A stretch of DNA of 64,000 nucleotides from Escherichia coli (GTDB lineage Bacteria; Pseudomonadota; Gammaproteobacteria; Enterobacterales; Enterobacteriaceae). Under the pieces are notes generated by a model that did no database searches, was not told the origin of the DNA, and worked only from the letters and a program-made list of their open reading frames with translations. The stretch lies in the NCBI GenBank assembly GCA_032372955.1, contig GCA_032372955.1_4725.1. One strand, written 5' to 3'. A program made the position numbers and the translations under genes. Each line of letters opens with the position of its first letter. Position 1 is the first letter of the stretch. This document shows positions 13,332 through 60,517 of the stretch, in pieces.

Positions 13332-13356
13332 TTTCGCGACTACATTACCTAGGTGA
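13332..13356 (+). promoter_or_regulatory. conserved 25-nt promoter-like motif, copy A
   Basis: TTTCGCGACTACATTACCTAGGTGA, located 35 nt after hairpin copy 2 and ~200 nt upstream of gene 13559. Confidence 0.55.
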
Positions 13357-13558
13357 TAAGAGCGGTTACTGTTGTCGCTGTAAATTTCTCTTAATAATCG
13401 AGGATACAGTCATGGCCTTATTAATACGCGACCCGTCAGCATACGAAAACACGCGTTATAACCATAACCAGTTCGGCAATAATTTCTAACAAAGAACGAT
13501 CAATCTATGCATTGATTCTTCTATCCGCAATCCACCTAACATAGAAAGGTAAAATACG

Positions 13559-14128
13559 ATGTTTAATCCAGAAATCATGATTCTTGATCCTTGGTACCTC
13601 AACAAACTTCCAGGAATCAAAATGCCAGGCGATCCTCACGCATTCGATTTGATGGTCGTTGCCGAAGTTACCAGCAATACGGTTAACACCATCGACGATG
13701 ATGAGGTTCCTGTTGAAGAGGTGTTCTCTGTTACGACGACATTACTGGAAAGTCGAGAGCTGACCGAAAACGGCAGCGCCGATGAAATCATTCCTATCGA
13801 TGGTGAGATGGAGATCATGTTAACACAGGTCGAGTTGCACCATCGTGTCGCACCAACAAAAGACACGCCTTATGACAATGAACCTGCAGAACAACCTGAT
13901 GAAAACGGTCGAGTGAAACTTGCTGACATCGACGACGATGCTCTTGAAGATATCGACGAAAACGAAGAAACGAACTTCTACCAAGCTGAAGCGAAAGAAG
14001 CGTTTGATAAAGCGGTTCAGCATGATCGACGTATCACCGAGAAGATGATCCAACAACAACTTATCGGTAAACGTCTTAAGCTCGAATTCGCAAGCGGGGT
14101 GCTTACTACCTGGTCACTCATCGTCTAA
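13559..14128 (+). CDS. highly acidic hypothetical protein
   Basis: 189 aa with AAAGG upstream. It is very D/E-rich (runs such as IDDDEVPVEE and DIDDDALEDIDENEE). It is the first gene downstream of the promoter-like motif at 13332-13356. Confidence 0.6.
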   Translation: MFNPEIMILDPWYLNKLPGIKMPGDPHAFDLMVVAEVTSNTVNTIDDDEVPVEEVFSVTTTLLESRELTENGSADEIIPIDGEMEIMLTQVELHHRVAPTKDTPYDNEPAEQPDENGRVKLADIDDDALEDIDENEETNFYQAEAKEAFDKAVQHDRRITEKMIQQQLIGKRLKLEFASGVLTTWSLIV

Positions 14129-14197
14129 AACCGAAACAACGTTTTCATTTCCAATCACATACTCAACAATCTAAATCCAATTAAGAGGACAACATTT

Positions 14198-14599
14198 ATG
14201 TTTAATATTCTTAGTGTACCGCGTTCCCCTGTCAGTTCTTACTTCGGTATTATGACCAGTAAAGAACACAACGTGGAATATACTGTTATCGCTAAAGATC
14301 CATCACCGATCAACGTAACGTTTGCTGAAGGTACTACCGAACTCGTTCCGTTAAATGGTGAATTCAGTAAACCTGTTAACGGCGTCTACGAACTTATCAC
14401 TCGCGATCCGAATAACAACGCGACCTACCGTGTGGTGTGTGCGTTCAACAATAACAAATTGGTTATTGTTGCGGATAGCCGTGGGTTATCGTGGATGGCT
14501 GAGGAAGGCACACATCGTTACTACGAAGAATGCTTACGAACCGCAGGCATCTACGATCTGGTAATGGACGCCCGTGCTAAAAACGACCGGATGTTTTAA
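14198..14599 (+). CDS. hypothetical protein
   Basis: 133-aa ORF with AGAGGA RBS. Confidence 0.6.
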   Translation: MFNILSVPRSPVSSYFGIMTSKEHNVEYTVIAKDPSPINVTFAEGTTELVPLNGEFSKPVNGVYELITRDPNNNATYRVVCAFNNNKLVIVADSRGLSWMAEEGTHRYYEECLRTAGIYDLVMDARAKNDRMF

Positions 14600-14605
14600 A
14601 TTATC

Positions 14606-14932
14606 ATGATTACTCGAGAAATCATTTACGACGCTATTATCGAATGCCGCCATCGCGTCATGCGTGGAACGGTGTATAACTACCACTTAAACAACATTAT
14701 CAGTGAATGTACGGCGGTGATGACTAGCGCGCTGGGTAAACCTAGCGCTATCGCACTCTATCCAAACATCACTGAACAGGAGCAAATCAATATCGAAAAC
14801 CAACGTCGAGTGAATCGCCAATACGATGTAACAGCCATGCACGCATGGCTTATCGTTGCAGCGAAACTCAACACGCTTCTCACTGAGAACGGCTGGAAAT
14901 TTTCACCTAATGAATTCATGACAATAAGTTAA
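14606..14932 (+). CDS. hypothetical protein
   Basis: 108-aa ORF, 6 nt after the previous stop. It is followed by the bidirectional hairpin at 14949-14980. Confidence 0.55.
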   Translation: MITREIIYDAIIECRHRVMRGTVYNYHLNNIISECTAVMTSALGKPSAIALYPNITEQEQINIENQRRVNRQYDVTAMHAWLIVAAKLNTLLTENGWKFSPNEFMTIS

Positions 14933-14948
14933 TCAAAGCGGTCATAAC

Positions 14949-15002
14949 CCCTCCTCCTTCCCTTACGGGTTGGAGGAGGGAACCGCACAATCTTTTTTTT
15001 TT
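14949..15002. terminator. conserved Y/R hairpin, copy 3, plus a T-run (bidirectional, between convergent genes)
   Basis: ccctcctccttccc-ttac-gggttggaggaggg. A T-run lies at 14992-15002. TTATG is on the minus-strand side (14943-14947). Confidence 0.7.
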
Positions 15003-15006
15003 GCGT

Positions 15007-19649: not shown

Positions 19650-19748
19650 ACTACCGTAGCTGCTTCGTTGGACGATATTCTTGACGACAACGTTGCGGAT
19701 GGTTTCATTGCACCGGACATTCATCCGGCACCGTGATACATAAGTCAG

Positions 19749-19778
19749 CCTCCCTCAGCCCGTAAGGGTTGGGGGAGG
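19749..19778. terminator. conserved Y/R hairpin, copy 4 (fully paired variant), after the capsid gene
   Basis: cctccctcagccc-gtaa-gggttgggggagg, then tttctatgccgt. Confidence 0.7.
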
Positions 19779-19811
19779 TTTCTATGCCGTTTACGTTGTG
19801 AATAGAAAAAA

Positions 19812-19836
19812 TTTGACGCTTACATTACCTAGGTGA
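19812..19836 (+). promoter_or_regulatory. conserved 25-nt promoter-like motif, copy B
   Basis: TTTGACGCTTACATTACCTAGGTGA, located 34 nt after hairpin copy 4 and ~150 nt upstream of gene 19986. Confidence 0.55.
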
Positions 19837-19985
19837 CAGACGCCTGCGATGAATAAGGCATAGACAACACGTAAGGTCGTTCTCGCGCTAGGAACGATGC
19901 TGAAACCGTCGGCTGTCGGCTCGATAAGAACAAGAAAAGGGAAATGCGTTATGCGTGATAGTTTTCAATCAGATGGAGGTTGACG

Positions 19986-21422
19986 ATGCCCTCCATGCCA
20001 ATATGTGATACCGCGTTCGAACCGTGGGATGGTACGCACGCTTATCGCATTGACGGTTATGCTGAACCGTTATATGACCTGGAATTAGGATGGGCATGTA
20101 TTAATGAATCTGGCCATACCGTGTTGGTGATCACCTCCGACAATATGTTCCAGTACATTCCTGGTAGGGTTGAGGACGGCAATACATTCAGGATCGTACG
20201 ACGTTCAAAATTTCGTAGTCCTGTAATAGTTGACAGCCATGACGTATCTAATGCGAATGGTGCATTCAGAAACTTCGTCTACGCGGGTAGACGTCGGGAT
20301 ATACTCCGTGTTAAAAACGGCACAGGTTACGCGATAAGGAAACCGCATATCCGTCGTATTGTTAACACAGAGAAAATGCCGCGTCTACTAGACCAGCAAG
20401 ACTGGTACGATACGCTGGATGAAATATGTCAAATTGACCTCAACACGTTGAACTTTAATCAACCCGCATATGTCGCGCAAATCAACGTGGCAATCGTAAA
20501 AGTTAAAGGAGAATACAAAAGCGCAGACCACGTTACGAAAGGGATTGATCACCCCTACATCGCAACGTGCGCGCGGAGCTTGACGGGAAAAACAGAGGGT
20601 TTCCGAATTCTCGGAACGCAACTCACTATCCATTGGACGCCACCCGACTTTCATAATCCGTATAGCTTATGGGTTAACGTGTTAGGGAAAGCGTTCGAAA
20701 TAAAACCAACGAATGGAGCAGGCGCGCCAGGTATGTTGGTTACCTTCGGGAATAATGACTCCATCTTCGTACCGGTCGAAGATTTGGAAAAAGAGATGTG
20801 GAAGTACAATGTTTTTCCGACACGTGAATCGGCATTGCATTGGCGCGACCCCGTCCAAAAAGAAGCCTACAAAAATGATTTCGACCAACGTAGCTACGAA
20901 CGTAAGGCATCGGAAGAAACCCTTAAAGGGGTGATGGCTGAAATGCGACGTATGGCGGATGAACACAAGGCAGTTATCGCACAGATGCATGAGGCGCATC
21001 GCGCCGACGCAAAGCTGCGCGATGAACAACATAAAGCCGAACTCGATCAGCTTAAAGACGAACAAAAACGTAGGATGGAACAACACCAAGCCGAAATGAA
21101 ACGTCAAGATGATCTACGTAAACAAATACACGAAGATTATCAAGCTGATTTAAAACGTCGTGATGATGAGGCTAAACGCAAACATGAAGAATTCGTCGCT
21201 GAACTTCGTCGTCGAGATGAAGAATCCAAACGTAAGCACGACGAGTTTGCTGCTGAGATACGCCGACGTGATGAAGAGGCAAAAAGACAACGTGAAGCGG
21301 AAGAAGCGCGACGTCAACGTAACGTCGATGTTTGGAAAGCCGCTGCGAGTATAACTGCGGCCGTTGTCGGTATAGGTATGACCTTTTTCAAGATTCTTGA
21401 GAAGGCGTCATCGAAAAAGTAA
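19986..21422 (+). CDS. hypothetical protein with a charged 18-aa tandem repeat and a C-terminal transmembrane anchor
   Basis: ATG 19986 lies 6 nt after GGAGG; the track start is TTG 19980. There are three 54-nt repeats at 21150-21311 (RRDDEAKRKHEEFVAE-like). The C-terminus is hydrophobic: AAASITAAVVGIGMTFFKIL. Confidence 0.6.
   Translation: MPSMPICDTAFEPWDGTHAYRIDGYAEPLYDLELGWACINESGHTVLVITSDNMFQYIPGRVEDGNTFRIVRRSKFRSPVIVDSHDVSNANGAFRNFVYAGRRRDILRVKNGTGYAIRKPHIRRIVNTEKMPRLLDQQDWYDTLDEICQIDLNTLNFNQPAYVAQINVAIVKVKGEYKSADHVTKGIDHPYIATCARSLTGKTEGFRILGTQLTIHWTPPDFHNPYSLWVNVLGKAFEIKPTNGAGAPGMLVTFGNNDSIFVPVEDLEKEMWKYNVFPTRESALHWRDPVQKEAYKNDFDQRSYERKASEETLKGVMAEMRRMADEHKAVIAQMHEAHRADAKLRDEQHKAELDQLKDEQKRRMEQHQAEMKRQDDLRKQIHEDYQADLKRRDDEAKRKHEEFVAELRRRDEESKRKHDEFAAEIRRRDEEAKRQREAEEARRQRNVDVWKAAASITAAVVGIGMTFFKILEKASSKK
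21150..21311 (+). repeat. three tandem 54-nt coding repeats (charged 18-aa unit)
   Basis: LKRRDDEAKRKHEEFVAE / LRRRDEESKRKHDEFAAE / IRRRDEEAKRQREAEEAR. Confidence 0.75.
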
Positions 21423-21461
21423 CTTTAATCTGCTTAAGCAACTTTCTGAAAGGAGTGTGTG

Positions 21462-23258
21462 ATGGATCCTAGATTCTGCAAAGCTGTCGCTGAGCTTGCA
21501 CCGAAGATGAACGAGAAGATAGCACGCAACATCGTCGTCGATAAGATGCAAGATGTTGAGTCCTATGTTGATCGTCTTTGGCGGAACAGCAAAGATAGTT
21601 TACCTAAGGATCTGGTGTATCATGGCCTGCGTCGCTGCATGGCCCGCGAACAGTTCCACTACTTAAGCGGAGGAAAGAAAACCAAAGGGAAGGATAGCGG
21701 TAAGCTGACCTTCGACCTTGCGCCTTCCGATGTGTTTATGGTGATGCTGGAATTCCGCTGGTACGGCGCAATGGAATCAGGTGACCGTCGTGAACCAGGA
21801 AAGGACTACTGCATTATCCGACACCCTCTCCTATTGCCCGCGGTAGGTCAGGGTGGTAAAATGCGTCTACGTGGTGCGAACTTCATTCTCAGTGCGGTGC
21901 TCGCTGACCCTGTAATCAGTTACACGAAAGACATGGCGTTCATCATGCTTCCGCGTGACAAAATCACGGTTAAACGTACACCGTATCAGTTCCTGAGCAA
22001 TGATACACCGACCGGTATCGATTATCGTCATTACCTATCATTACCCTGGTCGCAAATCTATCATCTTACCAAACAAAGTAAAGTGAACGGTGACAACATC
22101 AACCACACCAGCGTAACCACACTGGGTCACTATCTCTTTGCGAAGTATGGGGTGGGTGAGTGTTTCCGACGTTTTGCAGGCGTCGAAGCCGTAACCGGAC
22201 GGAACCTTGCTGAACGTGATTTTCCGCGCGACCAATGGGTAATCTATCGCACCATGGGGGTTATTCCTAAAGGCTTTAGTATCAGCAAAAGCGGTAAAAG
22301 CCGTAGCGCTAGCGCTGTACGTTACAAGCATCCTGATATTCAAATTGCCGTAAGACGTGGAGGCACGGAACGTATTGTTCTTGGCCTTGTCGGCGCATTC
22401 TTGTATCTCATCGACCGTTATTACGATCGTTTTCCGGAAGACTATCCGGTTGAAGAGTTCGCGAATGCGCCAGACCATTGGCGTACATTACTCGGTTTGA
22501 TTATCTTTAATAACAACAATGCAGATGCGCGTTTGTTGCGTGATGTAAACCACCACATCGACAGTCTCGATCTTTACGTTGACGAGATTCAGCAGAAGAA
22601 GTTCAAACAGGAAAATATTCCTTGCGATGACTTCTACGAATTTATGGCGTATCTGATTGACAATGTTACTATCGAAATGAGTCGTGTTGATACCACGACG
22701 ATGTTCGGTAAGGAATTGATGGTGTTGGAATATGTCATGGAGGATGTGCGTAAGAGCATCTTTAAACTGGGGTTCCATCTTAAAACCACAGAACGTGGTA
22801 AACGACAGAACAACCGTAAAGAGATGACCAATCGCGATGTACAGAAGGCGTTGCGAAATCAAGTTGCGACGGAAGCGATTCTCAATATCCAGAGCAATCG
22901 TGATAAGCGTGAGAAAGTGGCAACATCGATTCAGTCACCTGGTGATTGCATGCTGTTCAAAGTGAGCACGCATGTTGTTCTCCAGAGCCAAAATGCAGGC
23001 GGTGCTGCATTGGCTGACGAGAGTCGTTTGGTTAGTGGTTCCATCCCGTTCTGTGCAAGCTATCTGAATCTTCCACACTCCGAACCAACCGGACGTCAGA
23101 AGTTCAGTATGTACGCACCTATCGACGAACGTGGTCGGTTAATCATTACCCCACAAATTGCAAATGACGTTGCAGCAACCAATGCAGGCTTGAAGAAAGA
23201 CGTCGGTCGATTCGATGAAGAAATTGTAGAAATTAACGATCACGACATAATCGATTGA
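21462..23258 (+). CDS. hypothetical protein (598 aa)
   Basis: AGGAG 6 nt upstream of ATG 21462. Long ORF with no motif I can assign. Confidence 0.6.
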   Translation: MDPRFCKAVAELAPKMNEKIARNIVVDKMQDVESYVDRLWRNSKDSLPKDLVYHGLRRCMAREQFHYLSGGKKTKGKDSGKLTFDLAPSDVFMVMLEFRWYGAMESGDRREPGKDYCIIRHPLLLPAVGQGGKMRLRGANFILSAVLADPVISYTKDMAFIMLPRDKITVKRTPYQFLSNDTPTGIDYRHYLSLPWSQIYHLTKQSKVNGDNINHTSVTTLGHYLFAKYGVGECFRRFAGVEAVTGRNLAERDFPRDQWVIYRTMGVIPKGFSISKSGKSRSASAVRYKHPDIQIAVRRGGTERIVLGLVGAFLYLIDRYYDRFPEDYPVEEFANAPDHWRTLLGLIIFNNNNADARLLRDVNHHIDSLDLYVDEIQQKKFKQENIPCDDFYEFMAYLIDNVTIEMSRVDTTTMFGKELMVLEYVMEDVRKSIFKLGFHLKTTERGKRQNNRKEMTNRDVQKALRNQVATEAILNIQSNRDKREKVATSIQSPGDCMLFKVSTHVVLQSQNAGGAALADESRLVSGSIPFCASYLNLPHSEPTGRQKFSMYAPIDERGRLIITPQIANDVAATNAGLKKDVGRFDEEIVEINDHDIID

Positions 23259-23292
23259 CACATAACCGAATAAATAAAAAGGATCGTAAGAA

Positions 23293-25851
23293 ATGTATAA
23301 TGGCAGTAACAACATGTATCAACAAATGGGCTATAGCGAAAACCCTTATACGAGCACGGTTAATTATGCGGCTGAACAGGTTCGTCAGCAACAGTATCAG
23401 CAATCACCGTACGGCGCATATCCGAATAACGCCTATCAACCACCACAATACCAACAACCCTCATATCAGCAGAACTATAACTTCATCACCCAAGAAGCAA
23501 CGATCGTCAAAATCCGTCAAGCTATCTTTAATGTCCTGAAAGACTTCGCTCAGCAAGACAAAATACAAACCGAGTTCGTCGCACGTTATACCAATAACGA
23601 TATGATGATGGAATCGCTTGTTGAAGACTGTTGTTGGAACGTGTTCTCTTACATCAACCCGATGCCGCAGAACGCGTCCGACGACCAGATCGTCTCTGCT
23701 GCCGTGAGCACAGTTGCGCTGTATCATCTTGTAACGTGGCTCTTTGAACCGAATCAGTACCCGGAATATTATCGCGCGATTGAATTATCACGCATTAACC
23801 CGGAAGCCGCGAATAAGTACACGCAGCTGAATAAAAGCGGGAGCCTGGCACAAATCGCGCAGAAGTCACGTGGTTTGAAGCAGCAGGTGATGCAGATGGG
23901 GATGACTTATCGTGGCCCGCAAGCAAGCGCGATGGTTAGTGGCGGGTACGGTCAACCACAACAGCCAGCGTACGCCATGTATGGTGGAACCTATCCGCAA
24001 CCGCAATACCAGCCTAATCCGGCAGTTATGCGTGGTATGGCTCCAACAACGCCAGGATACGGCGCACAACCTCGGCCGACGGTTGTTCAACCACAAGCGC
24101 CATCGTACATCGATTCGAAGGATTGTGCGTTCAACCGTTTGTATGATGTTGGTGATGACGATCCTATCGTTGATGATGCACCTGCTGCTACAGCGCCGCG
24201 TTACGAGGCACCACAACCACGGATTTACTCGACAAATCCTGAAGGAGATATTGGTGGTATCAACGATATCTTTGCAGCGGCTGAACAGTTTGCTGAACAG
24301 TACGAAGAGCCAGAATGGCATGTTAAGGCTGGGCAGCAGAAACCCGTTCAACCTGAACCTGCGCAGGTGAAACCGGAACCCGTTCGTACGGCTCGTTCTG
24401 CTACGGTAACAAAGACCGTTAATCCAATTGATGCGACCGAAGATGCTAAGCGTTACGGTCGTGTTGTTCAACATGAAGAATTTATGCAGATGCGTCTGAA
24501 AGCCAAAGACTTTGCACCTAATAGTCGTTGGCCGACGTTGTATGACTTCAGACACTTCGCTCGTCGGGCACGTATCGACGAAAACGGAATTCTTCATGAA
24601 ACCATTGTTGACATTACATCCCTCACGGAGGAAGAAGTGGAATACATCGAACTTGAATCAGATCCAACCGCTCGTCGTATGGCAGAGCAGGAAATGGCAA
24701 AACTGGATCGTATCGCGCAAGCAGAAGTTGTTCGTGTTAGCCTTAACAAACCGGTTCAGCGTGAGCCAATCGTTGTCGGTGAGCAGCGCGAAATGAAACT
24801 GTTTACCGTCACCGACGCGATCGCAGCGTCAAGCGTTGAGGATGCTGAAACCAAAGCTGCGGTAGCGATCATCCAGCAGACCAACACCGACGTCAACCAA
24901 AACGACGCATTAGCATTCCTGGCTACCGTCAATTCCTATCTGGGAACCTATACCGACAAAGAGCTAGATGCAATCCATGAATTCCTGGATGCGTTGTCTA
25001 TTGATAAGGGTCGTAGCGACGATATCAAAGCTTATCGTCAGATCATGCAACAGTATCGTGATGTCATTCCTCTGCGTATTTGGCATTTCCTGAACGATAG
25101 CATGACCAAAGACGTTAACAAGCTGATCAAACGTATCGTACCGAAGAACTTCTCTGAAACCACCATCTCTAGCTTCGTTGATGATATCGGAGAACTGTCC
25201 GGTTGGCTGATTCACGATCTTAAAATGGACCAGAAGTTCATTGAAGATGAATTCTCCAATTGCTACTACACCTGGGTCAACATGCTGAAGTGTCTCTACT
25301 GCAATCGCGATGGCGAAGGTCAGTGGAACATTCGTCTTTCCATGGCTGAACTGTACAACATGCATGACTACCTGAAAGCCGCTCACGAAAAATCTGCAGC
25401 GAATCGTGAACGTCATCTGGTTGCCATGAGTGAGTATCGTGCAGAACTGGAGAAAGATGGCTCTCTGGATGCTGACGAAATCGAACGTCGTTTGGCGGAT
25501 GCGGCTATCGAGGATATGCGTGTTAATCCAGACATCGTTACCGACGAAGATAGCAACGATGCTTACTGGTTCAATCACAGCGTATTCGCGATGCGTCCGC
25601 ATGTTGTTGTTCGCGTACCGACCAACGCCAAGATTCTGAAGCTGAACCAGAGCGGTTACACTCACGCATCGGCTGCAACCAACCCAAGCATTGCTCGTAT
25701 GCTGGATCAGGTGTTCAAGACCTTCGAAACCAAAGTAAAAGGTCTGCAATCTGTTACTGTAATTCTGAGCGATGATACTCGTCTGAAAGCAGTACGTACG
25801 GTAAACGGTATTACCGCTTCCGAGTATCTGCTGGAACGTGAAGAGCAGTAA
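23293..25851 (+). CDS. hypothetical protein with Q/Y/P-rich low-complexity segments
   Basis: 852 aa with AAGGA RBS. The N-terminus reads QQYQQSPYGAYPNNAYQPPQYQQPSYQQNY. A second G/Q/P/Y-rich segment lies at about nt 23893-24120. Confidence 0.6.
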   Translation: MYNGSNNMYQQMGYSENPYTSTVNYAAEQVRQQQYQQSPYGAYPNNAYQPPQYQQPSYQQNYNFITQEATIVKIRQAIFNVLKDFAQQDKIQTEFVARYTNNDMMMESLVEDCCWNVFSYINPMPQNASDDQIVSAAVSTVALYHLVTWLFEPNQYPEYYRAIELSRINPEAANKYTQLNKSGSLAQIAQKSRGLKQQVMQMGMTYRGPQASAMVSGGYGQPQQPAYAMYGGTYPQPQYQPNPAVMRGMAPTTPGYGAQPRPTVVQPQAPSYIDSKDCAFNRLYDVGDDDPIVDDAPAATAPRYEAPQPRIYSTNPEGDIGGINDIFAAAEQFAEQYEEPEWHVKAGQQKPVQPEPAQVKPEPVRTARSATVTKTVNPIDATEDAKRYGRVVQHEEFMQMRLKAKDFAPNSRWPTLYDFRHFARRARIDENGILHETIVDITSLTEEEVEYIELESDPTARRMAEQEMAKLDRIAQAEVVRVSLNKPVQREPIVVGEQREMKLFTVTDAIAASSVEDAETKAAVAIIQQTNTDVNQNDALAFLATVNSYLGTYTDKELDAIHEFLDALSIDKGRSDDIKAYRQIMQQYRDVIPLRIWHFLNDSMTKDVNKLIKRIVPKNFSETTISSFVDDIGELSGWLIHDLKMDQKFIEDEFSNCYYTWVNMLKCLYCNRDGEGQWNIRLSMAELYNMHDYLKAAHEKSAANRERHLVAMSEYRAELEKDGSLDADEIERRLADAAIEDMRVNPDIVTDEDSNDAYWFNHSVFAMRPHVVVRVPTNAKILKLNQSGYTHASAATNPSIARMLDQVFKTFETKVKGLQSVTVILSDDTRLKAVRTVNGITASEYLLEREEQ

Positions 25852-25871
25852 TTAACTTATCGTCCGACGGC

Positions 25872-25893
25872 GGGTATTGTATTTGCAATACCC
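25872..25893 (+). terminator. hairpin after gene 23293-25851 (no U-tract)
   Basis: gggtattg-tatttg-caataccc, an 8-bp stem. Confidence 0.35.
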
Positions 25894-25912
25894 TAGTTGA
25901 TAAGGAAACCGT

Positions 25913-26185
25913 ATGAGTCAATATAAACTCATTACCGTCTCTGTGGATGCAAAGGACTTACGCGAAATTACGTTAGCAGCCAACGCAGTTCAACAGGACA
26001 GTGAACTGACGGCATATGAACGTTACCAGCTTTTCCTCTCGATAAGCGACACGGTAGCACGTATGCAACAGAAGTACCAGGTTCAGCTAACCGTAATCGA
26101 CAAAGGCGCTGTGATCCCACCACACCCTAGTTGGCGCGTACTGAGAAGCAAACTCACCACAATTGAATCGTGGTTAACCTCGTAA
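25913..26185 (+). CDS. hypothetical protein
   Basis: 90-aa ORF with AAGGAAA RBS. It is followed by the hairpin at 26206-26240. Confidence 0.5.
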   Translation: MSQYKLITVSVDAKDLREITLAANAVQQDSELTAYERYQLFLSISDTVARMQQKYQVQLTVIDKGAVIPPHPSWRVLRSKLTTIESWLTS

Positions 26186-26205
26186 TAAATTAAATAGCGC
26201 ATAGC

Positions 26206-26264
26206 CCTTCTCCCCTTCCCTCATCGGGTTGGGGAGAAGGTTAACTATGTGTTATTTTTTTTTT
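26206..26264. terminator. conserved Y/R hairpin, copy 5, plus a T10 run (between convergent genes)
   Basis: ccttctccccttccc-tcatc-gggttggggagaagg. CTATG is present on both flanks (26200-26204 minus strand, 26245-26249 plus strand). A T-run lies at 26255-26264. Confidence 0.7.
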
Positions 26265-26272
26265 ACGTCCGT

Positions 26273-47308: not shown

Positions 47309-47399
47309 TTTATGTTTGTGATTATTCTTCTCTTTTATAATTTCTAATGATAAGATTAAGTACCTGGAGTAAAAGTTTACAGATGTTGTAAATGTATTT

Positions 47400-47740
47400 G
47401 GAAAGTAAAATTTCCACGACCTCGGCCCCTTCGGGGGACGGGGGAGGAGCGAAGTCCTTTAGAGACGAGCAACAGGATAACTCTAAGAAAAAGAAAAACT
47501 AAACGAGCGAAGCGAGTTTATGTTTTTATCCTTAGAGTTATCAAGCTATAAGCGTAGCGTTAGCGTATAACGGTTATGTCGTATACGAATGCAATGAGTA
47601 TAGACGAGATACTCTGATGAACAACGTGAAGAAGAGTATCACAAATGTTTTTTGAGTTATCCGGATTTAACTAGCATGTAACGAAGTGTAATGCACAGAT
47701 GACATGTGTTACCGTTAAGGTAGTAAACACATGTTATCCA
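47400..47740 (+). ncRNA. candidate structured-RNA region (array of stem-loops); strand and function unknown
   Basis: The hairpins are: 47420-47443 (10 bp, cUUCGg loop); 47476-47542 (12-bp perfect outer stem gataactctaag/cttagagttatc with an inner imperfect stem); 47579-47607; 47608-47640 (gatactct/agagtatc); and 47702-47734 (acatgtgtt/aacacatgt). There is no ORF of 60 aa or more on either strand. Confidence 0.3.
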
Positions 47741-47990
47741 TTGTTTTGAAGATAAGCTTATTAACTTACTTTTAAATCAATTTAAATATACAAACAACTT
47801 AAACATACCAAGATAAAACAATTGAACCTAAGATAAACAAGATAACTTAGACAATACACTTTTAACGAATACAGATAACATCTTACTTAAATCAAAATAC
47901 CTATCCTCGTTTACCTTCCTTGCTTGCAACACCTCTTCTAAATCCATCCCTTCTTAAGAAACAACAAAACCCTTACTGTAACACAAATCC
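47741..47990. repeat. AT-rich non-coding segment with AGATAA/GATAAC iterons and a CTTACTT(TT)AAATCAA direct repeat
   Basis: AGATAA occurs at 47750, 47811, 47831, 47840 and 47873. The direct repeats are at 47765-47780 and 47882-47895. Confidence 0.5.
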
Positions 47991-48015
47991 TTTCACGACT
48001 ATATTACCTAAGTGA
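47991..48015 (+). promoter_or_regulatory. conserved 25-nt promoter-like motif, copy C
   Basis: TTTCACGACTATATTACCTAAGTGA, located 82 nt upstream of gene 48098. Confidence 0.55.
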
Positions 48016-48097
48016 TGCGTACGTACGATGTTCGTATTGCGTCAAATAGAACTCAATACGTTGTTTAATTAACGTGAAAAACAGAGGAACTTTTTAA

Positions 48098-48880
48098 ATG
48101 AACGATGAAATCATTTTTGATACCATGTTTACTGGAGATGAATACCTGGCGTTACCGAGCGATGTTCAAAACGAATGCGTGAAGGTAGCATGCTACAGCG
48201 GCGGTCAGGCTGGGATGCGTGTACGTTGCGTTGACGGGACGAACGGGAAAGTTGTTTGGCGTGGTGCTCACACGTACCCTTACCTGCTTACCGGCAACAA
48301 GAATTGGTACGCTCATCGCAGCCAGCATCCTGCACGGATGAGCGCGAGCGGATTCGTGGTACGTGGTGCGTTGGATGAACGGGTGGAACGCATCGAGATC
48401 ACCGATCGCGCGTTCATCGATCAGCTTGCACAGGTTGCTTACGATGAGGGACGTGCAACAGGGCGATACGGTTGGTTGAAGGTGAACAGCGATACGCAAT
48501 TACAGGTAGGATTCCATCACGCGCTTCCTGGGTGGGCGAACCATACCGTTGGAACGTATTACACCAAAAAGCTTACCATGGTGAAACCTTACATGGCGGA
48601 TGCGAGCTTGGAGGCAACGGATCAGATGCATCAATTGCTTCGCATGTATTATCCACGGGTGGTGCATCCACTTGGGTTCGCTTGGGTCAGCGAAGTGCGC
48701 TACAACCCACGCAAGAAACGCGTTGAAGCGAAGGTGCTTAACGAACGTTGGTTACCGGTTGTGCAACCAGGGCTTGACGATGAATCCATCATGATGCGGG
48801 TAAGCCGAAGCCGGTTCGTACAATGGGATGCTACCATGCTACAACGCCCACAACACGTTACAGGAGAAACGTTCGCATGA
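48098..48880 (+). CDS. hypothetical protein (260 aa)
   Basis: AGAGGA RBS. It is the first gene after the ORF-free region and the promoter-like motif at 47991-48015. Confidence 0.6.
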   Translation: MNDEIIFDTMFTGDEYLALPSDVQNECVKVACYSGGQAGMRVRCVDGTNGKVVWRGAHTYPYLLTGNKNWYAHRSQHPARMSASGFVVRGALDERVERIEITDRAFIDQLAQVAYDEGRATGRYGWLKVNSDTQLQVGFHHALPGWANHTVGTYYTKKLTMVKPYMADASLEATDQMHQLLRMYYPRVVHPLGFAWVSEVRYNPRKKRVEAKVLNERWLPVVQPGLDDESIMMRVSRSRFVQWDATMLQRPQHVTGETFA

Positions 48881-49176
48881 TACGCGCAACAGGATACGAA
48901 AACAAAGGCAAGAACAGCGTGCAGCGTTACGTTGCCGACGAGGAAGGGAAAGCAGAATACCTGGATTGGTTCAACCGTTACAGCGCAAGCAAGGTACGTG
49001 ATCCTAGCATCCTGAGGTTACAGAGCAGTTTCCAATGGCAGGCTTCCGAACAACGCTGGTACATCACGTTGGAAATCGGAACGGTACGGGAAGACCAGCT
49101 TCCTGCATACTTAAAAGAACAACGGGAGCAGATCAACACATTACTCGCACAACACAAAACGGAACCTAAACCTTAA
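48877..49176 (+). CDS. hypothetical protein
   Basis: ATGA overlap with the upstream stop, with AGGAG 10 nt upstream. The track start is 48823. Confidence 0.55.
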   Translation: MIRATGYENKGKNSVQRYVADEEGKAEYLDWFNRYSASKVRDPSILRLQSSFQWQASEQRWYITLEIGTVREDQLPAYLKEQREQINTLLAQHKTEPKP

Positions 49177-49216
49177 TCCAACACCAACAAGCGAAAAGGA
49201 AAGTACAACAGAAATC

Positions 49217-49492
49217 ATGTTGATGAAACCGACAGCAAAGAACAAGGTTTATAAAGCAATCTACGCGTCAGACACAGTCAGCCTGACGAAGATCATCAAA
49301 TACAAACTTGAGAAGGTGCTACGTGTTGAACCGAGCATAGGCTTAGTCCGTTATCGCCTGATTACCGAGAACGGTGAAGGGTATTACGCACCGTCGTCTC
49401 GAAGCGATAACGCCGTTGTGTTAACCCGGGATGTGGTTGAAGCAATCAACAACGGAACGAAGGCGTTCTACGCGCACAGAAAAGCCGTATAA
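49217..49492 (+). CDS. hypothetical protein
   Basis: 91-aa ORF. The RBS spacing is long, so the start is uncertain. Confidence 0.45.
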   Translation: MLMKPTAKNKVYKAIYASDTVSLTKIIKYKLEKVLRVEPSIGLVRYRLITENGEGYYAPSSRSDNAVVLTRDVVEAINNGTKAFYAHRKAV

Positions 49493-49569
49493 CGCAATAA
49501 ACGAATCCAAAGAAGGGAAACTATACCTTAACTTAAAACGACGCTTAGAGAGCGTTACAGGAGCTTAGA

Positions 49570-49977
49570 ATGCAACATGATCAAACGAACACCACCGCAA
49601 CGTCAATAGCCCTTGCCGATGCCGTCCAGGCGTGGAACGAGAACCCAGCCTGTCGAGCAAAGATGGAATTGGTGTACGAAGGATCAACCCGTGTCAGGAC
49701 GGCTGATGATGTTCTGGTCGTACGAGGTGAATTCTTCGCCTTAGGTGTCACGGACCGTGGTCCGTTAGATGCGCTTTGGATCGAGTTACAAACCTGCCCG
49801 CAGAGACCACGCTACGTGACCCGTGACCATCGTCCTGAGAACGCGTTGGTCGGAACCGGTTCCGTGGATATTTTCATCTGGCAGGATACCCTCGACAACA
49901 TGAACAAGATGATCGACGTTGAGAACATCGTTGCAAATAAGTTAACCCAACTTAAAGAACGTCTGATGCCGCTATAA
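49570..49977 (+). CDS. hypothetical small protein, possible distant member of the tandem family at 50090-51341
   Basis: AGGAG 6 nt upstream. VLVVRGEFFALGVTDRGPLDALW resembles the strand-turn-helix motif of the next three genes. Confidence 0.5.
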   Translation: MQHDQTNTTATSIALADAVQAWNENPACRAKMELVYEGSTRVRTADDVLVVRGEFFALGVTDRGPLDALWIELQTCPQRPRYVTRDHRPENALVGTGSVDIFIWQDTLDNMNKMIDVENIVANKLTQLKERLMPL

Positions 49978-50035
49978 CGCATCAACATCACCCGCCTGTA
50001 CCTCATCGTGTTCGGGCGGGGCAATAAGAAACCAA

Positions 50036-50053
50036 GGGGACATCGCCGTCCCC
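50036..50053 (+). terminator. short GC hairpin between genes 49570 and 50090
   Basis: ggggac-atcgcc-gtcccc. It has no clear U-tract. Confidence 0.3.
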
Positions 50054-50089
50054 GTTACTATCATCAACCACTATCAAGAGGAACCTACC

Positions 50090-50533
50090 ATGGAAATTAA
50101 ATTCTGTAAATCGATCGCGATTGTACCTGAACAACCTGCGGATGATCTCGAAAAGCTCGATCATCCCACACTGCAACATGCGCTGGAACGTTTAGCCTCT
50201 TTTGCGCCGTTAGAGAATCATCTTCACTGCGTTAATCTTGAAGCATCCGACTTCGACGTGAAGCTTGGGTTCGTGTTTTCACAAACGGGGAAGGATGTGT
50301 TAGAAAACATATTCTGGTCTGCTGAGCATAAGGCGAGAAATGTGATGACGAAGTTAGTTTATAACGTTAGCCTTAGTGAAGACGGCACCTATTGGACGTC
50401 AGAGGCTTGCTGGACGATTTCTGCGATTTCACGAATGGACAAAATACACTATTTGCATCGTGTTGCTGATAGCATTGTACACCAACTGGATCGTTTTGAT
50501 ACCACCCGCTTATCGAATGGAACACAGTGTTAA
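50090..50533 (+). CDS. small tandem-family protein
   Basis: AGAGGA RBS. VKLGFVFSQTGKDVLENIFW aligns with the P2 and P3 motif. Confidence 0.55.
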   Translation: MEIKFCKSIAIVPEQPADDLEKLDHPTLQHALERLASFAPLENHLHCVNLEASDFDVKLGFVFSQTGKDVLENIFWSAEHKARNVMTKLVYNVSLSEDGTYWTSEACWTISAISRMDKIHYLHRVADSIVHQLDRFDTTRLSNGTQC

Positions 50534-50548
50534 TACGAGGAATCGAAC

Positions 50549-50977
50549 ATGCAAATTAAATGGCCTGAATCAGCAGTAACTGCAGCGCGCGTTGGTCTTT
50601 ATCATTCGCTGGTTGCTCAGCATACCAGCTTACATCGCACCCTATCACTTTTACGCGAAGACGAAAAACTACGTGAACACATTCAGCCGATCTCAGCATC
50701 AATGAATGCGAACACGTTGTCTATGCGTTGCGTTCGATTGACTTTTGTGTGTACCACGTTAGGAAAGACGTTGCTTGAGGCTGCCTATCTTCGTTGTTGC
50801 GAAAGCACGACGTTCACCGACGATATGGTGTTGTCGATCGAGATGTATTGTCAGACAAATGGAATACGTCAACCGCAGATAGTTTGGAAAATATACGGAT
50901 TGACACCAAAAGTAATCAGCACGAAGTTAGATGCGGTTGCTAATAGCCTTAATGAAATTTTGAAAGAAGGAATTTGA
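50549..50977 (+). CDS. small tandem-family protein
   Basis: GAGGAA RBS. RCVRLTFVCTTLGKTLLEAAY aligns with RCILTFTCTKKGVTVIRDVW of the next gene. Confidence 0.55.
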   Translation: MQIKWPESAVTAARVGLYHSLVAQHTSLHRTLSLLREDEKLREHIQPISASMNANTLSMRCVRLTFVCTTLGKTLLEAAYLRCCESTTFTDDMVLSIEMYCQTNGIRQPQIVWKIYGLTPKVISTKLDAVANSLNEILKEGI

Positions 50978-50978
50978 T

Positions 50979-51341
50979 ATGCAACAACGTATCGGTTTAT
51001 CGCTCGCCATTGACCGACTGATCAAAGTCTCATCGTTACGAAGTGAATTTGTTGGCGTCCGTGAAGAAGCGGCGAATAACCGCTGTATTTTAACGTTTAC
51101 GTGTACCAAGAAAGGCGTGACGGTTATCCGTGATGTTTGGGACGCTGTGAACAAACGTGAACCCCGCTGCTCGGTATCTGTCGTTGATTACAAAAACCTG
51201 GATAATACTTACACTATCCGTTTAGAATGGGAGCATCGCCTCAGGACATTCGTTGAAGTTCGGTCGAAGCTGTTAGCTGAATTGTTGAACGAAGCCTGTT
51301 TACGTGACGAGAACGCTACAGAACTCTTCAGAACGCTTTAA
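50979..51341 (+). CDS. small tandem-family protein
   Basis: It starts 1 nt after the previous stop, with AAGGAA upstream. It shares the motif described above. Confidence 0.55.
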   Translation: MQQRIGLSLAIDRLIKVSSLRSEFVGVREEAANNRCILTFTCTKKGVTVIRDVWDAVNKREPRCSVSVVDYKNLDNTYTIRLEWEHRLRTFVEVRSKLLAELLNEACLRDENATELFRTL

Positions 51342-51447
51342 TTCAATCTTAGATAAGGAAACCCCTTAGAAATTAAAACAAACCGTTATACGTCGTTCTG
51401 TGACGTTTAAGCTATACATTGAACTCATGGCAATCGAGGAAAGAAAA

Positions 51448-51837
51448 ATGTTAAATTCAACTTTTACCCACTATCTCCACACCTATGCAAAATTATGCTG
51501 CGTTGACATGGAAGAGCTCGCGAACGATAATACTGTTCGCGATTGTGAGATGCTTCCTAAGCGACAAGGTTTTCTACCCGGTTCGCGGTCAGCGGCGTTC
51601 TTCTTAATCGCTTACTTCATCGTTAGTCATAGTGCGGCGCTGTTGAGCCAAACCAAGAAACAGCGAAAGGATTACGCTACCGCAATCACTCAAGTTTATT
51701 TCGATCGTCTTCACGGACGTGCAGTGAGTATCGATACCGCGTTAACGACCGCGTTTCGTCATCGAGGCGCAACCGCGGTACAGCTACCTGCTTTGGTTAA
51801 GATCGGAAAAGAAATCATCCAGAATGCAACGCGTTAA
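51448..51837 (+). CDS. hypothetical protein
   Basis: I chose ATG 51448 as the start (GAGGAAAG 8 nt upstream); the track start is GTG 51400. It contains a hydrophobic stretch, AAFFLIAYFIVSHSAALL. Confidence 0.45.
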   Translation: MLNSTFTHYLHTYAKLCCVDMEELANDNTVRDCEMLPKRQGFLPGSRSAAFFLIAYFIVSHSAALLSQTKKQRKDYATAITQVYFDRLHGRAVSIDTALTTAFRHRGATAVQLPALVKIGKEIIQNATR

Positions 51838-51852
51838 TAAATAAACCATAAA

Positions 51853-51888
51853 CCTTCCTTCCCCGGCCTTTACGGCTAGGGAAGGAGG
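51853..51888. terminator. conserved Y/R hairpin, copy 9 (variant, between convergent genes)
   Basis: ccttccttccccggcc-tttac-ggctagggaaggagg. TTTATG is on the minus-strand flank (51847-51852), and a T-run lies at 51903-51909. Confidence 0.6.
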
Positions 51889-51907
51889 TTGTATAGCATT
51901 TCTTTTT

Positions 51908-52996
51908 TTATTGGAACGGGTCTGTACGACCGCTGCCACGATCTACACCACCGTGATCGTGGGTGTATACGTTTGTTCCGGTTGGTGAACGCCAAGAGCC
52001 TGCGATGTGTATGAAGTTCCCATTCAACGTCATCGTGTTCCCGTCTTCACCTGTGAAGCTTACAGCTCCAGTGAATACCGTATTAGGACATTTGAACGTG
52101 GTCTGTCCTGATACTTGCGCGGTGTAGCGATCACACTTCAAAGAAACATTCTGGCTCGTAACGCTTTCTGTTTTACTGGTACGCTCGAAGTTCTCACATT
52201 CGGTATAAATGTTTTTTGCTTTCATTCGGATATCGTTCTTAGCAATTGCTTTGAGCGTATCCTCGCATTGGAATGTGATGTTCTTTTTTGTCACGTCGAT
52301 GATGCTGTCGTCCTGGTTTTGATAACGCAGCATATGCTCGACAAAATGGAGTAACAGCAGATTTTGATGGACGCTGTCCGCAACCTGTAGGTAACCCTCG
52401 TCCAGATTAAGTTCCATGTAGACTTGGGTAACTTCACCAAGCTGTGCGCTGGTGCCGATAACCGCTTTCTTGAGGAAAGTATCAACCATTAGGTAATAGC
52501 AGTCTTCCGTTGAAATCGATTTACGGTCCTTCTTGGCGCTAGGACGTGCGCTGATGGTGAGGATAACCGATTCCATGGTCATCAGCTCGCTATCCCCTCC
52601 TTTGGGCTGCCAGTATAGCTGTTCTTCATCGGCGGTACGCCAGACCACCACACGCTGACCTTTCCTCAAGTTAGGTGCTGTCATCCGGTTACTGCCGAAG
52701 GGTAACCAGTAACACTGTACGCTGGTTGTTGTTGCCGCTTTCGCCGTATAACTGTTCCCTTGAGCGTCTGTTGCACTGACTTCTTTCACGCTTCCCGCCG
52801 CTTCAACTTTCCCGTCAGCACCTGACATCATCTCATCAAGAAAGACCTCCAGCGCCTGGTTAGGATCTTCTTCCAGACTTTTATTGGAAAAGTCGGCAGC
52901 AACAGTACCCAAGGCAAAGATACGGAAAACGCTTACGTTGTTGTCTGGAGCTAGCTGACTCCCTTTTGTGCGATTGTCTGTTGCCAGATCGCTCAT
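51908..52996 (-). CDS. baseplate central spike / gpV-like (P2 gpV, Mu gp45 class) protein
   Basis: AGGAG 8 nt upstream. An OB-like segment, WLPFGSNRMTAPNLRKGQRVVVW, resembles the P2 gpV N-domain. The C-terminal apex VYTHDHGGVDRGSGRTDP resembles gpV HTHKHPGDSGGTTGSP (HxH metal-binding tip). Confidence 0.6.
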   Translation of the reverse strand: MSDLATDNRTKGSQLAPDNNVSVFRIFALGTVAADFSNKSLEEDPNQALEVFLDEMMSGADGKVEAAGSVKEVSATDAQGNSYTAKAATTTSVQCYWLPFGSNRMTAPNLRKGQRVVVWRTADEEQLYWQPKGGDSELMTMESVILTISARPSAKKDRKSISTEDCYYLMVDTFLKKAVIGTSAQLGEVTQVYMELNLDEGYLQVADSVHQNLLLLHFVEHMLRYQNQDDSIIDVTKKNITFQCEDTLKAIAKNDIRMKAKNIYTECENFERTSKTESVTSQNVSLKCDRYTAQVSGQTTFKCPNTVFTGAVSFTGEDGNTMTLNGNFIHIAGSWRSPTGTNVYTHDHGGVDRGSGRTDPFQ

Positions 52997-58921: not shown

Positions 58922-58925
58922 GTTT

Positions 58926-59234
58926 TTATGCGCTTTCTACTTCAACGATAAAACGACGGATTTCACCATCAGAGGCTTTCAATGTTTGCGTGTAGGTGAA
59001 TTTTGCGATCCCTGACGGCAGCAATACATGATCGGTATTTTCTGTATCGTGTTGGAAATCTTTATTGGAATCAAGATCGATACTGTTTAAGGCCTTCCGT
59101 ATACGTGGCATCAGTGGATAAAAATCACCGAGATCGCGTAACCCTGGAATGGGTTCTAATACGATTTTGGTTTCAGTGCCAACACCATTCATGACAGGCG
59201 TTGTTGAAGTAAATTCAACGTTCAAATTGCTCAT
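58926..59234 (-). CDS. hypothetical protein
   Basis: The ORF is open to 59339. I prefer ATG 59234 (AAAGG ~10 nt upstream, MSNLNVEF...). The start is uncertain. Confidence 0.45.
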   Translation of the reverse strand: MSNLNVEFTSTTPVMNGVGTETKIVLEPIPGLRDLGDFYPLMPRIRKALNSIDLDSNKDFQHDTENTDHVLLPSGIAKFTYTQTLKASDGEIRRFIVEVESA

Positions 59235-59344
59235 GTTTATAACCTTTTGTTTAACAGACGATGAATAATCATGCATAGGTGTTGGCCCTCGTGAAGACGG
59301 GGGCCTCGACGATTTCTCGTCATACACTAATGCACACATTGTTT

Positions 59345-59467
59345 TCAGCGTAATACATTATGCGTATTACGCCTTTCTTCAGCCATGATAGCAACAGCGT
59401 GTTTAACAGAGAATGCGCAGATACCCGCCAGCAATGCTCTCTCCATTAGAATGAGTAACATGTTCAT
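59345..59467 (-). CDS. candidate small hydrophobic peptide (38-40 aa), not in the ORF track
   Basis: AAAGGAGGGAG lies immediately upstream of ATGAACATG. The product is MNMLLILMERALLAGICAFSVKHAVAIMAEERRNTHNVLR, with a hydrophobic N-terminal half. Its 3' end contains the hairpin at 59348-59372. Confidence 0.3.
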   Translation of the reverse strand: MNMLLILMERALLAGICAFSVKHAVAIMAEERRNTHNVLR

Positions 59468-59540
59468 CTCCCTCCTTTGTGTTATATTCACACCATTTTC
59501 CTATTTTGTTAATTCTTATTCCTGATATTTAACAGCATAA

Positions 59541-59564
59541 AAGCCTGCCCCGAAGGACAGGCTT
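59541..59564 (-). terminator. rho-independent-type hairpin (UUCG loop on the minus strand) followed by TTATGCTGT
   Basis: The minus strand reads aagcctgtcc-ttcg-gggcaggctt, then ttatgctgtt. It lies 5 nt after the stop of gene 59570-60391. Confidence 0.65.
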
Positions 59565-59569
59565 GATGA

Positions 59570-60391
59570 TTAGTAACGACGTAAGCTATCTACGGTGTTG
59601 CCATAACAGTCAGTAATGTACACACTTTCATTGGGATAGATGAAAATGAAACACGTGGTGTGCGTTGTTGTCGATGTATAATCGTCTACAACGGTTGGTT
59701 CGGTATAGCGTAGAACACCAATCGCTTGACTTAAACGGTAATTGTTTTCATCGTTCATCATAGCGTAATGTTCATCGCATCCATCAGATTTAACGACGAG
59801 GTTGTGATGTACCGCCCGAACCCCAGTAGGCTCTTGTTCTTTTAATGGGCCATCCAATTCGATATCATAACCACCATCGGTGGTGGGTGTTGCCGTAGCA
59901 AGAACCGATCCGTATTTCTTTACCAGGGGCGATAAGCTGGTATTGATCTTCGTATTTGGATCGATGTCATCAAAAAGTAACTGATACGTTAACTTAGCGA
60001 ATTCGGGATGAATATCTTTACCCAGCTGGTTGTTCAGGGCGGCAAGGTATTGTTCAAACGTGTTCTCTGGATTAAACACGCAAACGTCATTAAAATCAAC
60101 CAAAACGTTTGATAAAATTTCTGCGTTTTCGCGCACAACGATAGTCGTGAGACTGATTTCCCGTTTTCTTGCGTCCCGAACGAAGTGTCTAACAGCATCA
60201 CCGAATAACTCTGCCCACGTGATACCGTTGATACAGTCATCGGACGTCAGTGTTCTCACGGCTTTATTTTTAGCGTATTCGATAGCTTCTTTGAATACGG
60301 TACTGTTTCGATTACCTAGAACTGGATCGGTCAGGTACATTGGTTGGCTATTGCCGTTAGTAAACAACTTACAAACAAATACTTTTTCCAT
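59570..60391 (-). CDS. hypothetical protein
   Basis: ATG 60391 lies 6 nt after AGGAA; the track start is TTG 60409. It is followed on the minus strand by the terminator at 59541-59564. Confidence 0.6.
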   Translation of the reverse strand: MEKVFVCKLFTNGNSQPMYLTDPVLGNRNSTVFKEAIEYAKNKAVRTLTSDDCINGITWAELFGDAVRHFVRDARKREISLTTIVVRENAEILSNVLVDFNDVCVFNPENTFEQYLAALNNQLGKDIHPEFAKLTYQLLFDDIDPNTKINTSLSPLVKKYGSVLATATPTTDGGYDIELDGPLKEQEPTGVRAVHHNLVVKSDGCDEHYAMMNDENNYRLSQAIGVLRYTEPTVVDDYTSTTTHTTCFIFIYPNESVYITDCYGNTVDSLRRY

Positions 60392-60492
60392 GATAGGTTC
60401 CTGTTTCAAAGATGATGATTCCGAAGATGATTGGTTTAGGCTAAAAGCCTATAAAATTAGTTGCGGATGCCGTATTTATCTTAATCCAACAT

Positions 60493-60517
60493 TTTTCACG
60501 GCTATATTACTTAAGTG
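60493..60517 (+). promoter_or_regulatory. conserved 25-nt promoter-like motif, copy D
   Basis: TTTCACGGCTATATTACTTAAGTGA, located 24 nt upstream of ORF 60542. Confidence 0.55.

Follow-up and report, generated by a model that had tools for sequence, protein, structure and literature searches.

Here we describe a conserved element that occurs four times (copies A to D) in a 64,000-nt stretch of DNA (contig GCA_032372955.1_4725.1 of an Escherichia coli assembly; hereafter the window), each time at the head of a set of genes on the + strand. Each copy very probably serves the virion RNA polymerase (vRNAP) of a Goslar-like chimallivirus as an early promoter. A preliminary description of the window had proposed a phage-specific early promoter read by a phiKZ-like vRNAP, and this proposal is now supported by RNA sequencing (RNA-seq) of infections in which the nuclear-shell protein was knocked down, as well as by agreement with phiKZ in core sequence and spacing. 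Elements of this kind are already known in related phages, and the finding is sound but expected.

Over its whole length, the window shares 95.7% identity with Escherichia phage vB_EcoM_Goslar (97.7% over one 8-kb piece) and is colinear with positions 63064 to 1 and then 237304 to 236318 of that genome, in agreement with the earlier assignment to a phiKZ-like phage. Goslar is a 237-kb nucleus-forming jumbo phage of E. coli that belongs to the phiKZ-like family Chimalliviridae and encodes split beta/beta' RNA polymerase genes in two sets; its vRNAP genes (gp207, gp205, gp196, and gp078) lie outside the 64 kb covered by the window. The phage in the window differs from Goslar and from both Goslar-like genomes in IMG/VR, and thus represents a fourth member of the group.

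The pattern TTTSRCGNYTAYATTACYTARGTGA has exactly four matches in the window (13332-13356, 19812-19836, 47991-48015, and 60494-60518), all on the + strand; allowing up to three mismatches yields no further match in the window and none in 100 dinucleotide-preserving shuffles. The four + strand copies of a 25-nt motif that had been reported are therefore real, with the corrections that the fourth copy runs from 60494 to 60518 rather than from 60493 to 60517 and that the conserved element is longer, at about 36 nt. Open reading frame (ORF) positions likewise confirm the placement of each copy before the + strand gene set named for it, and the claim that all copies are intergenic holds except for copy A, which overlaps a 62-aa ORF (13301-13489, Goslar gp047). 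In the logo of 13 sites from Goslar, the full element reads A-N4-A...TTTCACGRC-TAYATTAC-YTNNN-TGA, with two invariant A residues 11 and 6 nt upstream of the first T of the 25-mer. Counting from the first T (=0) of TAYATTAC, the positions invariant in the 13 sites are A-20, A-15, T0, A1, A3, T4, T5, A6, C7, T9, T13, and G14, while TTTCACG at -9 to -3 and the A at +15 are nearly so; within TAYATTAC, seven of the eight positions are invariant over the 13 Goslar and four window copies together.

The element is also highly specific. In the full Goslar genome, the pattern TAYATTACYTNNNTG has 13 matches, all on the minus strand of the record, which corresponds to the + strand of the window. A position weight matrix (PWM) was made from these 13 copies and both strands were scanned: the four window sites score 45-51 bits and the rest of the window, on either strand, at most 8 bits; in Goslar, the 13 sites reach 30-53 bits, ahead of the next two at 15 and 8.4 bits. 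Every Goslar site is intergenic or at the 3' end of a gene and is co-oriented with the downstream gene, whose start codon is 25-205 nt away; the preliminary description had proposed to look for strand and intergenic bias by a genome-wide PWM scan. In a motif scan of IMG/VR, the matches were confined to Goslar, two close relatives, and three chance single hits without the TG. The Goslar sequence that scores 15 bits, TACATAACCTAAGGGAA (NC_048170, 151634, minus strand), is a degenerate copy in the gap upstream of gp165, which encodes a beta subunit of the non-virion RNA polymerase (nvRNAP); the knock-down signal described below rises slightly there (gp166 ~0.1, gp165 ~0.5), and this copy may be a weak or decayed early promoter.

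Independent evidence for early function comes from expression data. In the study of Armbruster et al. (bioRxiv 10.1101/2023.09.20.558163, version 2), knock-down of the nuclear-shell protein ChmA during Goslar infection arrests the phage genome in an early-infection vesicle together with the injected vRNAP; the resulting transcriptome matches that of a wild-type infection at 5-20 min, and the authors read it as vRNAP transcription inside the vesicle (bioRxiv 10.1101/2023.09.20.558163). Using the per-gene reads and log2 fold changes (log2FC, knock-down versus control, 30 min) of their Supplementary Table 2, the Goslar genes fall into two classes, one retained (log2FC about -1.3 to +1.4) and one lost (about -2.5 to -8.8). 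The first class consists of nine separate blocks made up of 13 units, namely gp001-004, gp014-021, gp037-040, gp044-047, gp070-075, gp094-105, gp106-159, gp162-175, gp176-182, gp183-186 with gp247 and gp246 (ChmA), gp225-244, gp214-216, and gp200-201. One motif copy lies at the 5' edge of each of the 13 units, and each copy heads one unit. All nine block starts are at motif sites (hypergeometric P ~8e-14, for 13 random intergenic regions of ~250), and the remaining four Goslar copies are internal to blocks, each before a gene with a higher signal. The rise is clear at three of these, at about +0.9 to +1.8 log2 (from gp106 at ~0.1 to gp105 at ~+1.0, from gp176 at ~-0.5 to gp175 at ~+0.9, and from gp244/245 at ~-1.1/-0.7 to gp246 at ~+0.9) and amounts to only ~+0.3 from gp183 to gp182.

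The equivalents of the four window gene sets illustrate how sharply the classes divide. For unit A, the log2FC of gp044-047 is +0.7 to +1.3, versus ~-3.2 for gp048 and -3.9 to -5.5 for gp043; for unit B, gp037-040 stand at +0.7 to +1.2, versus ~-4 for gp041 (the major head protein) and -5.6 to -6.8 for gp036. Similarly, gp014-021 of unit C (+0.8 to +1.4) are bordered by gp022 (-4.0 to -5.4) and gp013 (-4.8 to -6.6), and gp001-004 of unit D (+0.2 to +1.3) by gp005 (-5.3 to -7.6). The neighbours of these four sets therefore drop 8- to 200-fold or more in the knock-down, as is also evident from the raw knock-down reads: 780 for gp004 versus 1 for gp005, 798 for gp021 versus 4 for gp022, 1396 for gp040 versus 80 for gp041, and 597 for gp046 versus 27 for gp048. 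The genes downstream of the copies had been predicted to be early, and the four sets are exactly those whose transcription is retained on arrest before nucleus formation.

One Goslar site lies immediately upstream of chmA, the nuclear-shell gene and a classic early gene. The nvRNAP genes gp247, gp171, and gp165 are found in motif-headed early units and the vRNAP genes gp207, gp205, gp196, and gp078 in the lost (late) class, as the known two-polymerase cascade predicts; the study in which vRNAP was found in the vesicles used an sfGFP-tagged version of gp196, a product of the late class (bioRxiv 10.1101/2023.09.20.558163). The same data bear on whether the motif could instead belong to nvRNAP, as a promoter of a 'middle' class or of one active during the whole infection. 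Two observations would suit such a promoter: control cells still show good read numbers for the downstream genes at 30 min, and the nvRNAP subunits are themselves made early and hence are present in the knock-down. However, known nvRNAP promoters are short and different, being TATG for phiKZ late genes and a weak AT-rich sequence or TACT near -22 to -24 for phiKZ middle genes, and the AR9 counterpart, AACA-N6-TA/G, also differs (PMC5312081). The Goslar-type motif matches the vRNAP class in both core and spacing and, because nvRNAP genes lie downstream of it, another enzyme must read it first; a role as an nvRNAP promoter is accordingly very unlikely.

Recognition by the host enzyme is another alternative. 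E. coli RNA polymerase with sigma-70 might use TATATT or TACATT as a -10 box; TATATT matches TATAAT at five of six positions, and copy C has a weak 9/12 match (GTAACA-16-TATATT). A consensus scan nonetheless gave no match at copies A, B, and D, and the matches obtained do not exceed the shuffle expectation. With hexamer spacings of 16-18 nt scanned, no consistent fit emerged, in line with the preliminary description, which regarded the spacing as unsuited to a sigma-70 -35/-10 arrangement. The invariant C+7, T+9, T+13, and G+14 would have no role in a host promoter, and a -10 box leaves conservation over 36 nt unexplained. Moreover, transcription continues while the phage genome is held together with vRNAP inside the early-infection vesicle, and chimallivirus infection has been reported to be insensitive to rifampicin. 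Use of the element as a sigma-70 promoter is thus extremely improbable.

The element was also compared among close relatives. With eight sites aligned in up to four Goslar-like genomes, invariant columns number 292 of 304 inside the motif versus 1661 of 1786 outside it (odds ratio 1.8, p = 0.045), and the variable motif columns all fall at positions that are degenerate in the logo (-4, +2, +8, and +10 to +12). Two sites are especially informative: at Goslar site 113797 the flanks of the relative differ at many positions and the 38-nt element is changed only at the Y position; at the ortholog of copy C in a relative, the surrounding 500 nt are 75-79% identical and the element is again changed at a single Y position. 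As a separate observation, the IMG/VR genome UViG_3300011560_000001 carries, at ~3046-3110, a second copy of the 3' part of promoter C (TTACCTTCATGATGC) 47 nt downstream of the first; the intergenic region has otherwise diverged, and this part of it is an incomplete tandem duplication.

The pattern of conservation also speaks to the fallback offered in the preliminary description, in which the near-palindrome TTACCTAGGTGA would be a dyad-symmetric operator for a phage repressor or activator and the true promoter would lie elsewhere. The window copies are self-complementary at 8-10 of 12 positions around CTAG or TTAA, which prompts the idea, but the dyad is not conserved: over the 13 Goslar copies, TTAC..GTGA self-complementarity ranges from 4 to 10 of 12 and is only 4-6 of 12 in six of them. 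The three central positions of the dyad (+10 to +12) vary more than the rest of the element. Conservation is strongly one-sided, reaching 20 nt on the upstream side only, and the interval from the upstream terminator to the gene holds nothing else conserved that resembles a promoter. In phiKZ, for which transcript ends have been mapped, the architecture is asymmetric in the same way. There is, accordingly, hardly any likelihood that the copies are operators.

The early promoters of phiKZ, which its vRNAP reads, were reportedly described by Ceyssens et al. in 2014. All jumbo phages that encode RNA polymerases have a conserved AT-rich motif of ~10 nt, centred near -10, upstream of their early operons, and this motif is phage-specific (PMC7598289). 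In phiKZ, the early promoters consist of an extended -10 box and, upstream of -19, a T-rich element (Wicke et al. 2021, PMC8244752; a further source is Putzeys et al. 2024, PMC10914365), and those of phiKZ and 201phi2-1 are conserved at -10, -20, and -30 (PMC11512511). Early promoters of AR9 read AAATATATATTAT-(6N)-G+1, and the starts of phiKZ and phiR1-37 also lie 6 nt past the consensus (PMC5312081). Read directly, the phiKZ genome (NC_004629) contains TATATTAC upstream of gp36, gp41.3, gp54 (chmA), gp58.1, and gp68, the sites reading aaaaaATTTgAGATyTATATTACTAAnnTG; the core that the preliminary description had linked to phiKZ-like vRNAPs is indeed that of phiKZ early promoters, present before these five genes.

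The Goslar type shares with phiKZ the core TATATTAC, the TG at +13/+14, an A/T-rich upstream element with TTT, and conservation near -10, -20, and -30, as well as promoter placement upstream of chmA and other early operons, with a predicted chmA 5' untranslated region of 66 nt in both phages. It differs in allowing C at core position 3 (TACATTAC in five of the 13 copies), in having TTTCACGRC in place of ATTTGAGATY and YT rather than TAA after the core, and in its 13 copies per 237 kb compared to 28-32 per 280 kb; ChmA identity between the two phages is only ~24%. The chmA upstream sequences of phiKZ, Klebsiella phage Eowyn (TATATTACTTAGGTG), Erwinia phage RAY (TATATTACGTATGTG), and Proteus phage 10 (TATATTACTAAGGTG) all contain TATATTAC-N5-TG after an A/T-rich run, and the corresponding sequences of Ralstonia RP12 and PhiPA3 are CATATTACTATCTTG and TATATCACAGGTGTG. 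The ChmA proteins of Eowyn, RAY, Proteus phage 10, RP12, and PhiPA3 are about 22-26% identical to that of Goslar. An invariant TG, 6 nt past the core, is common to Goslar, the window, phiKZ, Eowyn, RAY, and Proteus phage 10.

Other systems resemble the Goslar type in part. Like it, the Pseudomonas phage 201phi2-1 has an AT-rich motif ~10 bp upstream of the start, with conserved -20 and -30 regions and few copies (6-8), upstream of hypothetical proteins (PMC11512511), the comparison being with the published description. AR9 has a TATATTA-type core, a 6-nt interval, and a G start, and its injected multisubunit vRNAP acts without need of protein synthesis (PMC5312081); however, AR9 infects Bacillus, has uracil-containing DNA, and forms no nucleus, and its promoter has a core with T in place of the final C and a purely AT-rich upstream part. 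Systems of the N4 and T7/SP6 types also combine a phage-encoded polymerase (virion-borne in N4) with a long specific promoter and a conserved start, but N4 promoters are DNA hairpins, and T7-type polymerases are single-subunit enzymes with an unrelated consensus. An N4-type hairpin promoter was considered for the window copies and rejected: the four fold at -2.7 to -5.4 kcal/mol into different structures, none of them shared or stable.

In the proposed mechanism, a multisubunit vRNAP would be packaged in the virion, injected along with the DNA, and able to bind the ~36-bp element without any newly made phage protein. Binding would involve TAYATTAC near -10, the TTTCACG-type sequence near -20, and the two invariant A residues near -30 (counted from the predicted start, TTTCACG lies at about -23 to -17 and the A residues at about -34 and -29), with each half of the element presumably contacted by its own surface of the polymerase. 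The first transcribed nucleotide would be the G of the invariant TGA, 6 nt past the core, and transcription would proceed through mostly orphan genes to a hairpin followed by a T-run. The start is assigned to this G because the starts of phiKZ and AR9 lie 6 nt past their consensus; predicted positions are given in Table 1.

Several points weigh against this assignment or narrow it. The RNA-seq data are at gene level, their strand-specificity is not established, and they come from Goslar rather than from the 95.7%-identical phage in the window, where the 64 kb themselves hold no vRNAP genes. The published chmA start is placed only within the 91 nt upstream of the ATG; this interval does include the core as well as the predicted start, which lies 66 nt before the ATG. 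The unit from gp159 to gp106 would be transcribed over ~29 kb from a single recognised promoter, and the 13 promoters of Goslar are fewer than the 28-32 of phiKZ, so weaker, unrecognised promoters may exist. One early block in Goslar is headed by a site (187639) that has no TTTCACG half and a score of only 30 bits, and the upstream half is therefore not strictly required. For Goslar, a literature search found no experiment with rifampicin or chloramphenicol and none on transcription in vitro, and no paper that pairs Goslar with a promoter motif or the motif with early blocks, although one may exist elsewhere; the words 'promoter' and 'motif' do not occur in the text of Armbruster et al., which thus does not report the link.

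A more speculative extension is that the promoter is bipartite and that its upstream half carries regulatory information, with sub-classes that differ in timing, strength, or a co-injected factor. The downstream half is identical among the 13 Goslar copies, and the upstream halves form three sub-classes, represented by TTAATCCAACATTTTTCACGG, by CAGTTTATTTCRCGAC, and by the phiKZ-like ATTGAAAAAAATTTCAGG, the last including chmA. The knock-down read density of the first gene differs only ~3-fold over the 13 units, and an association of sub-class with strength is thus not obvious. In parallel, the downstream half is nearly the same in phages whose shell proteins are only ~23% identical, which would rank the contact between vRNAP and promoter with the best-conserved traits of the family, and one phage might be able to use the promoter of another. 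On balance, such a reading is conceivable but unlikely.

Table 1. Probable early promoters, early transcription units, and upstream terminators in the window. Promoter spans run from the invariant A, 20 nt upstream of the core, to TGA.
Feature	Span	Strand	Details	Goslar counterpart
Early promoter copy A	13321..13356	+	core TACATTAC 13341-13348; predicted start G 13355; exact match, PWM 46.3 bits	site 49732, heading early block gp047-gp044
Early promoter copy B	19801..19836	+	core TACATTAC 19821-19828; predicted start G 19835; PWM 45.0 bits	site 43266, heading gp040-gp037; kept in 4/4 Goslar-like genomes
Early promoter copy C	47980..48015	+	core TATATTAC 48000-48007; predicted start G 48014; PWM 50.4 bits	site 15067, heading early block gp021-gp014
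Early promoter copy D	60483..60518	+	core TATATTAC 60503-60510; predicted start G 60517; PWM 50.9 bits	site 2567, heading early block gp004-gp001
Early unit A	13357..15002	+	genes 13559-14128, 14198-14599, 14606-14932; hairpin 14938-14986 + T10	gp046-gp044
Early unit B	19837..26265	+	genes 19986-21422, 21459-23258, 23293-25851, 25913-26185; hairpin 26206-26240 + T10	gp040-gp037
Early unit C	48016..51910	+	eight small ORFs 48098-51837; hairpin 51851-51890 + T-rich run	gp021-gp014
Early unit D	60519..63026	+	genes 60542-61198, 61252-61827, 61818-62252, 62267-62968; hairpin 62971-63013 + T13	gp004-gp001
Late-operon terminator	13266..13307	+	GC hairpin + TTATGCTGT tail; -27.4 kcal/mol; directly after gene ending 13261	
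Terminator after major head protein gene (17427-19649)	19747..19790	+	GC hairpin + CTATGCCGT tail; -30.7 kcal/mol	

By folding, all four window units terminate at a strong GC-rich hairpin with a T-run, convergent with a minus-strand late gene (14938-15002, 26206-26265, 51851-51910, and 62971-63026; T-runs of 10-13, T-rich in unit C). Among ten downstream proteins searched against Pfam and PHROG, a single match was obtained, to PHROG 2943 'polymerase' for the product of 21459-23258, and none of the ten matched a Pfam family above threshold; the remaining products are orphans, as is usual for early genes of related phages (PMC11512511). BLASTP comparison of the copy B operon with phiKZ gp67-gp69, which also lie behind an early promoter, found no similarity (E at least 0.5), and remote homology is still possible. 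The 62-aa ORF that corresponds to gp047 starts within the tail of the preceding terminator and spans promoter A; because the predicted start lies inside it, the annotated gp047 start is unlikely to be used. A 25-aa ORF with its ATG at 13412, preceded by GAGGA, would stay on the unit A transcript. Around the end of unit D, the two ends of the Goslar GenBank record join up at 63014-63065 of the window, where ~50 nt align to both ends, so the start of the record is an arbitrary or permuted cut; it falls within a convergent terminator region.

GC-rich hairpins precede copy A by 34 nt (13266-13297) and copy B by 31 nt (19747-19780), close to the ~35 nt previously noted for a conserved hairpin. These hairpins were considered as part of the promoter and rejected, since copy D has none nearby and that of copy C is ~670 nt upstream; they are terminators of the preceding late operons (Table 1). 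They belong to a conserved family of terminator hairpins, CCYTCYYCC-TTCCC-loop-GGGTT-GGRRGARGG, found at 13266-13307, 19747-19790, 7960-8002, and 47277-47320, with further members at 59495-59540 (-), 62995-63040 (-), 14949-14980, and 26206-26240. Late-operon hairpins are followed by TTATGCYGT instead of a T-run, and early-operon hairpins by T10-T13 or, in unit C, a T-rich tail. YTATGCYGT occurs six times in the window versus 1.65 expected, five of the six directly after a gene-end hairpin. The TTATGCYGT tail includes TATG, the phiKZ late-promoter consensus, and may be a terminator tail only or a late start signal as well.

Between a terminator and early promoter C lies an AT-rich non-coding stretch of ~670 nt (47309-47979; counterpart in Goslar, 14972-15825), in which no ORF longer than 40 aa, no tRNA, and no Rfam family was found; Rfam and tRNA scans of the whole window likewise returned nothing. 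The stretch contains many GATAA/TTATC boxes and a 20-nt inverted repeat (47476-47495 and 47523-47542). A non-coding RNA and a replication or packaging element are among the possibilities for it.

The current picture of chimallivirus transcription is unchanged by these results. The Goslar group, an E. coli model for nucleus-forming phages, gains an explicit early-promoter consensus and a map of 13 early transcription units with predicted starts and terminators. This map can be used for correcting annotation (e.g., gp047), for choosing mRNA knock-down targets, for early expression of inserted genes (as has been done with the phiKZ consensus promoter), and for in vitro assays of promoter recognition by jumbo-phage vRNAP.

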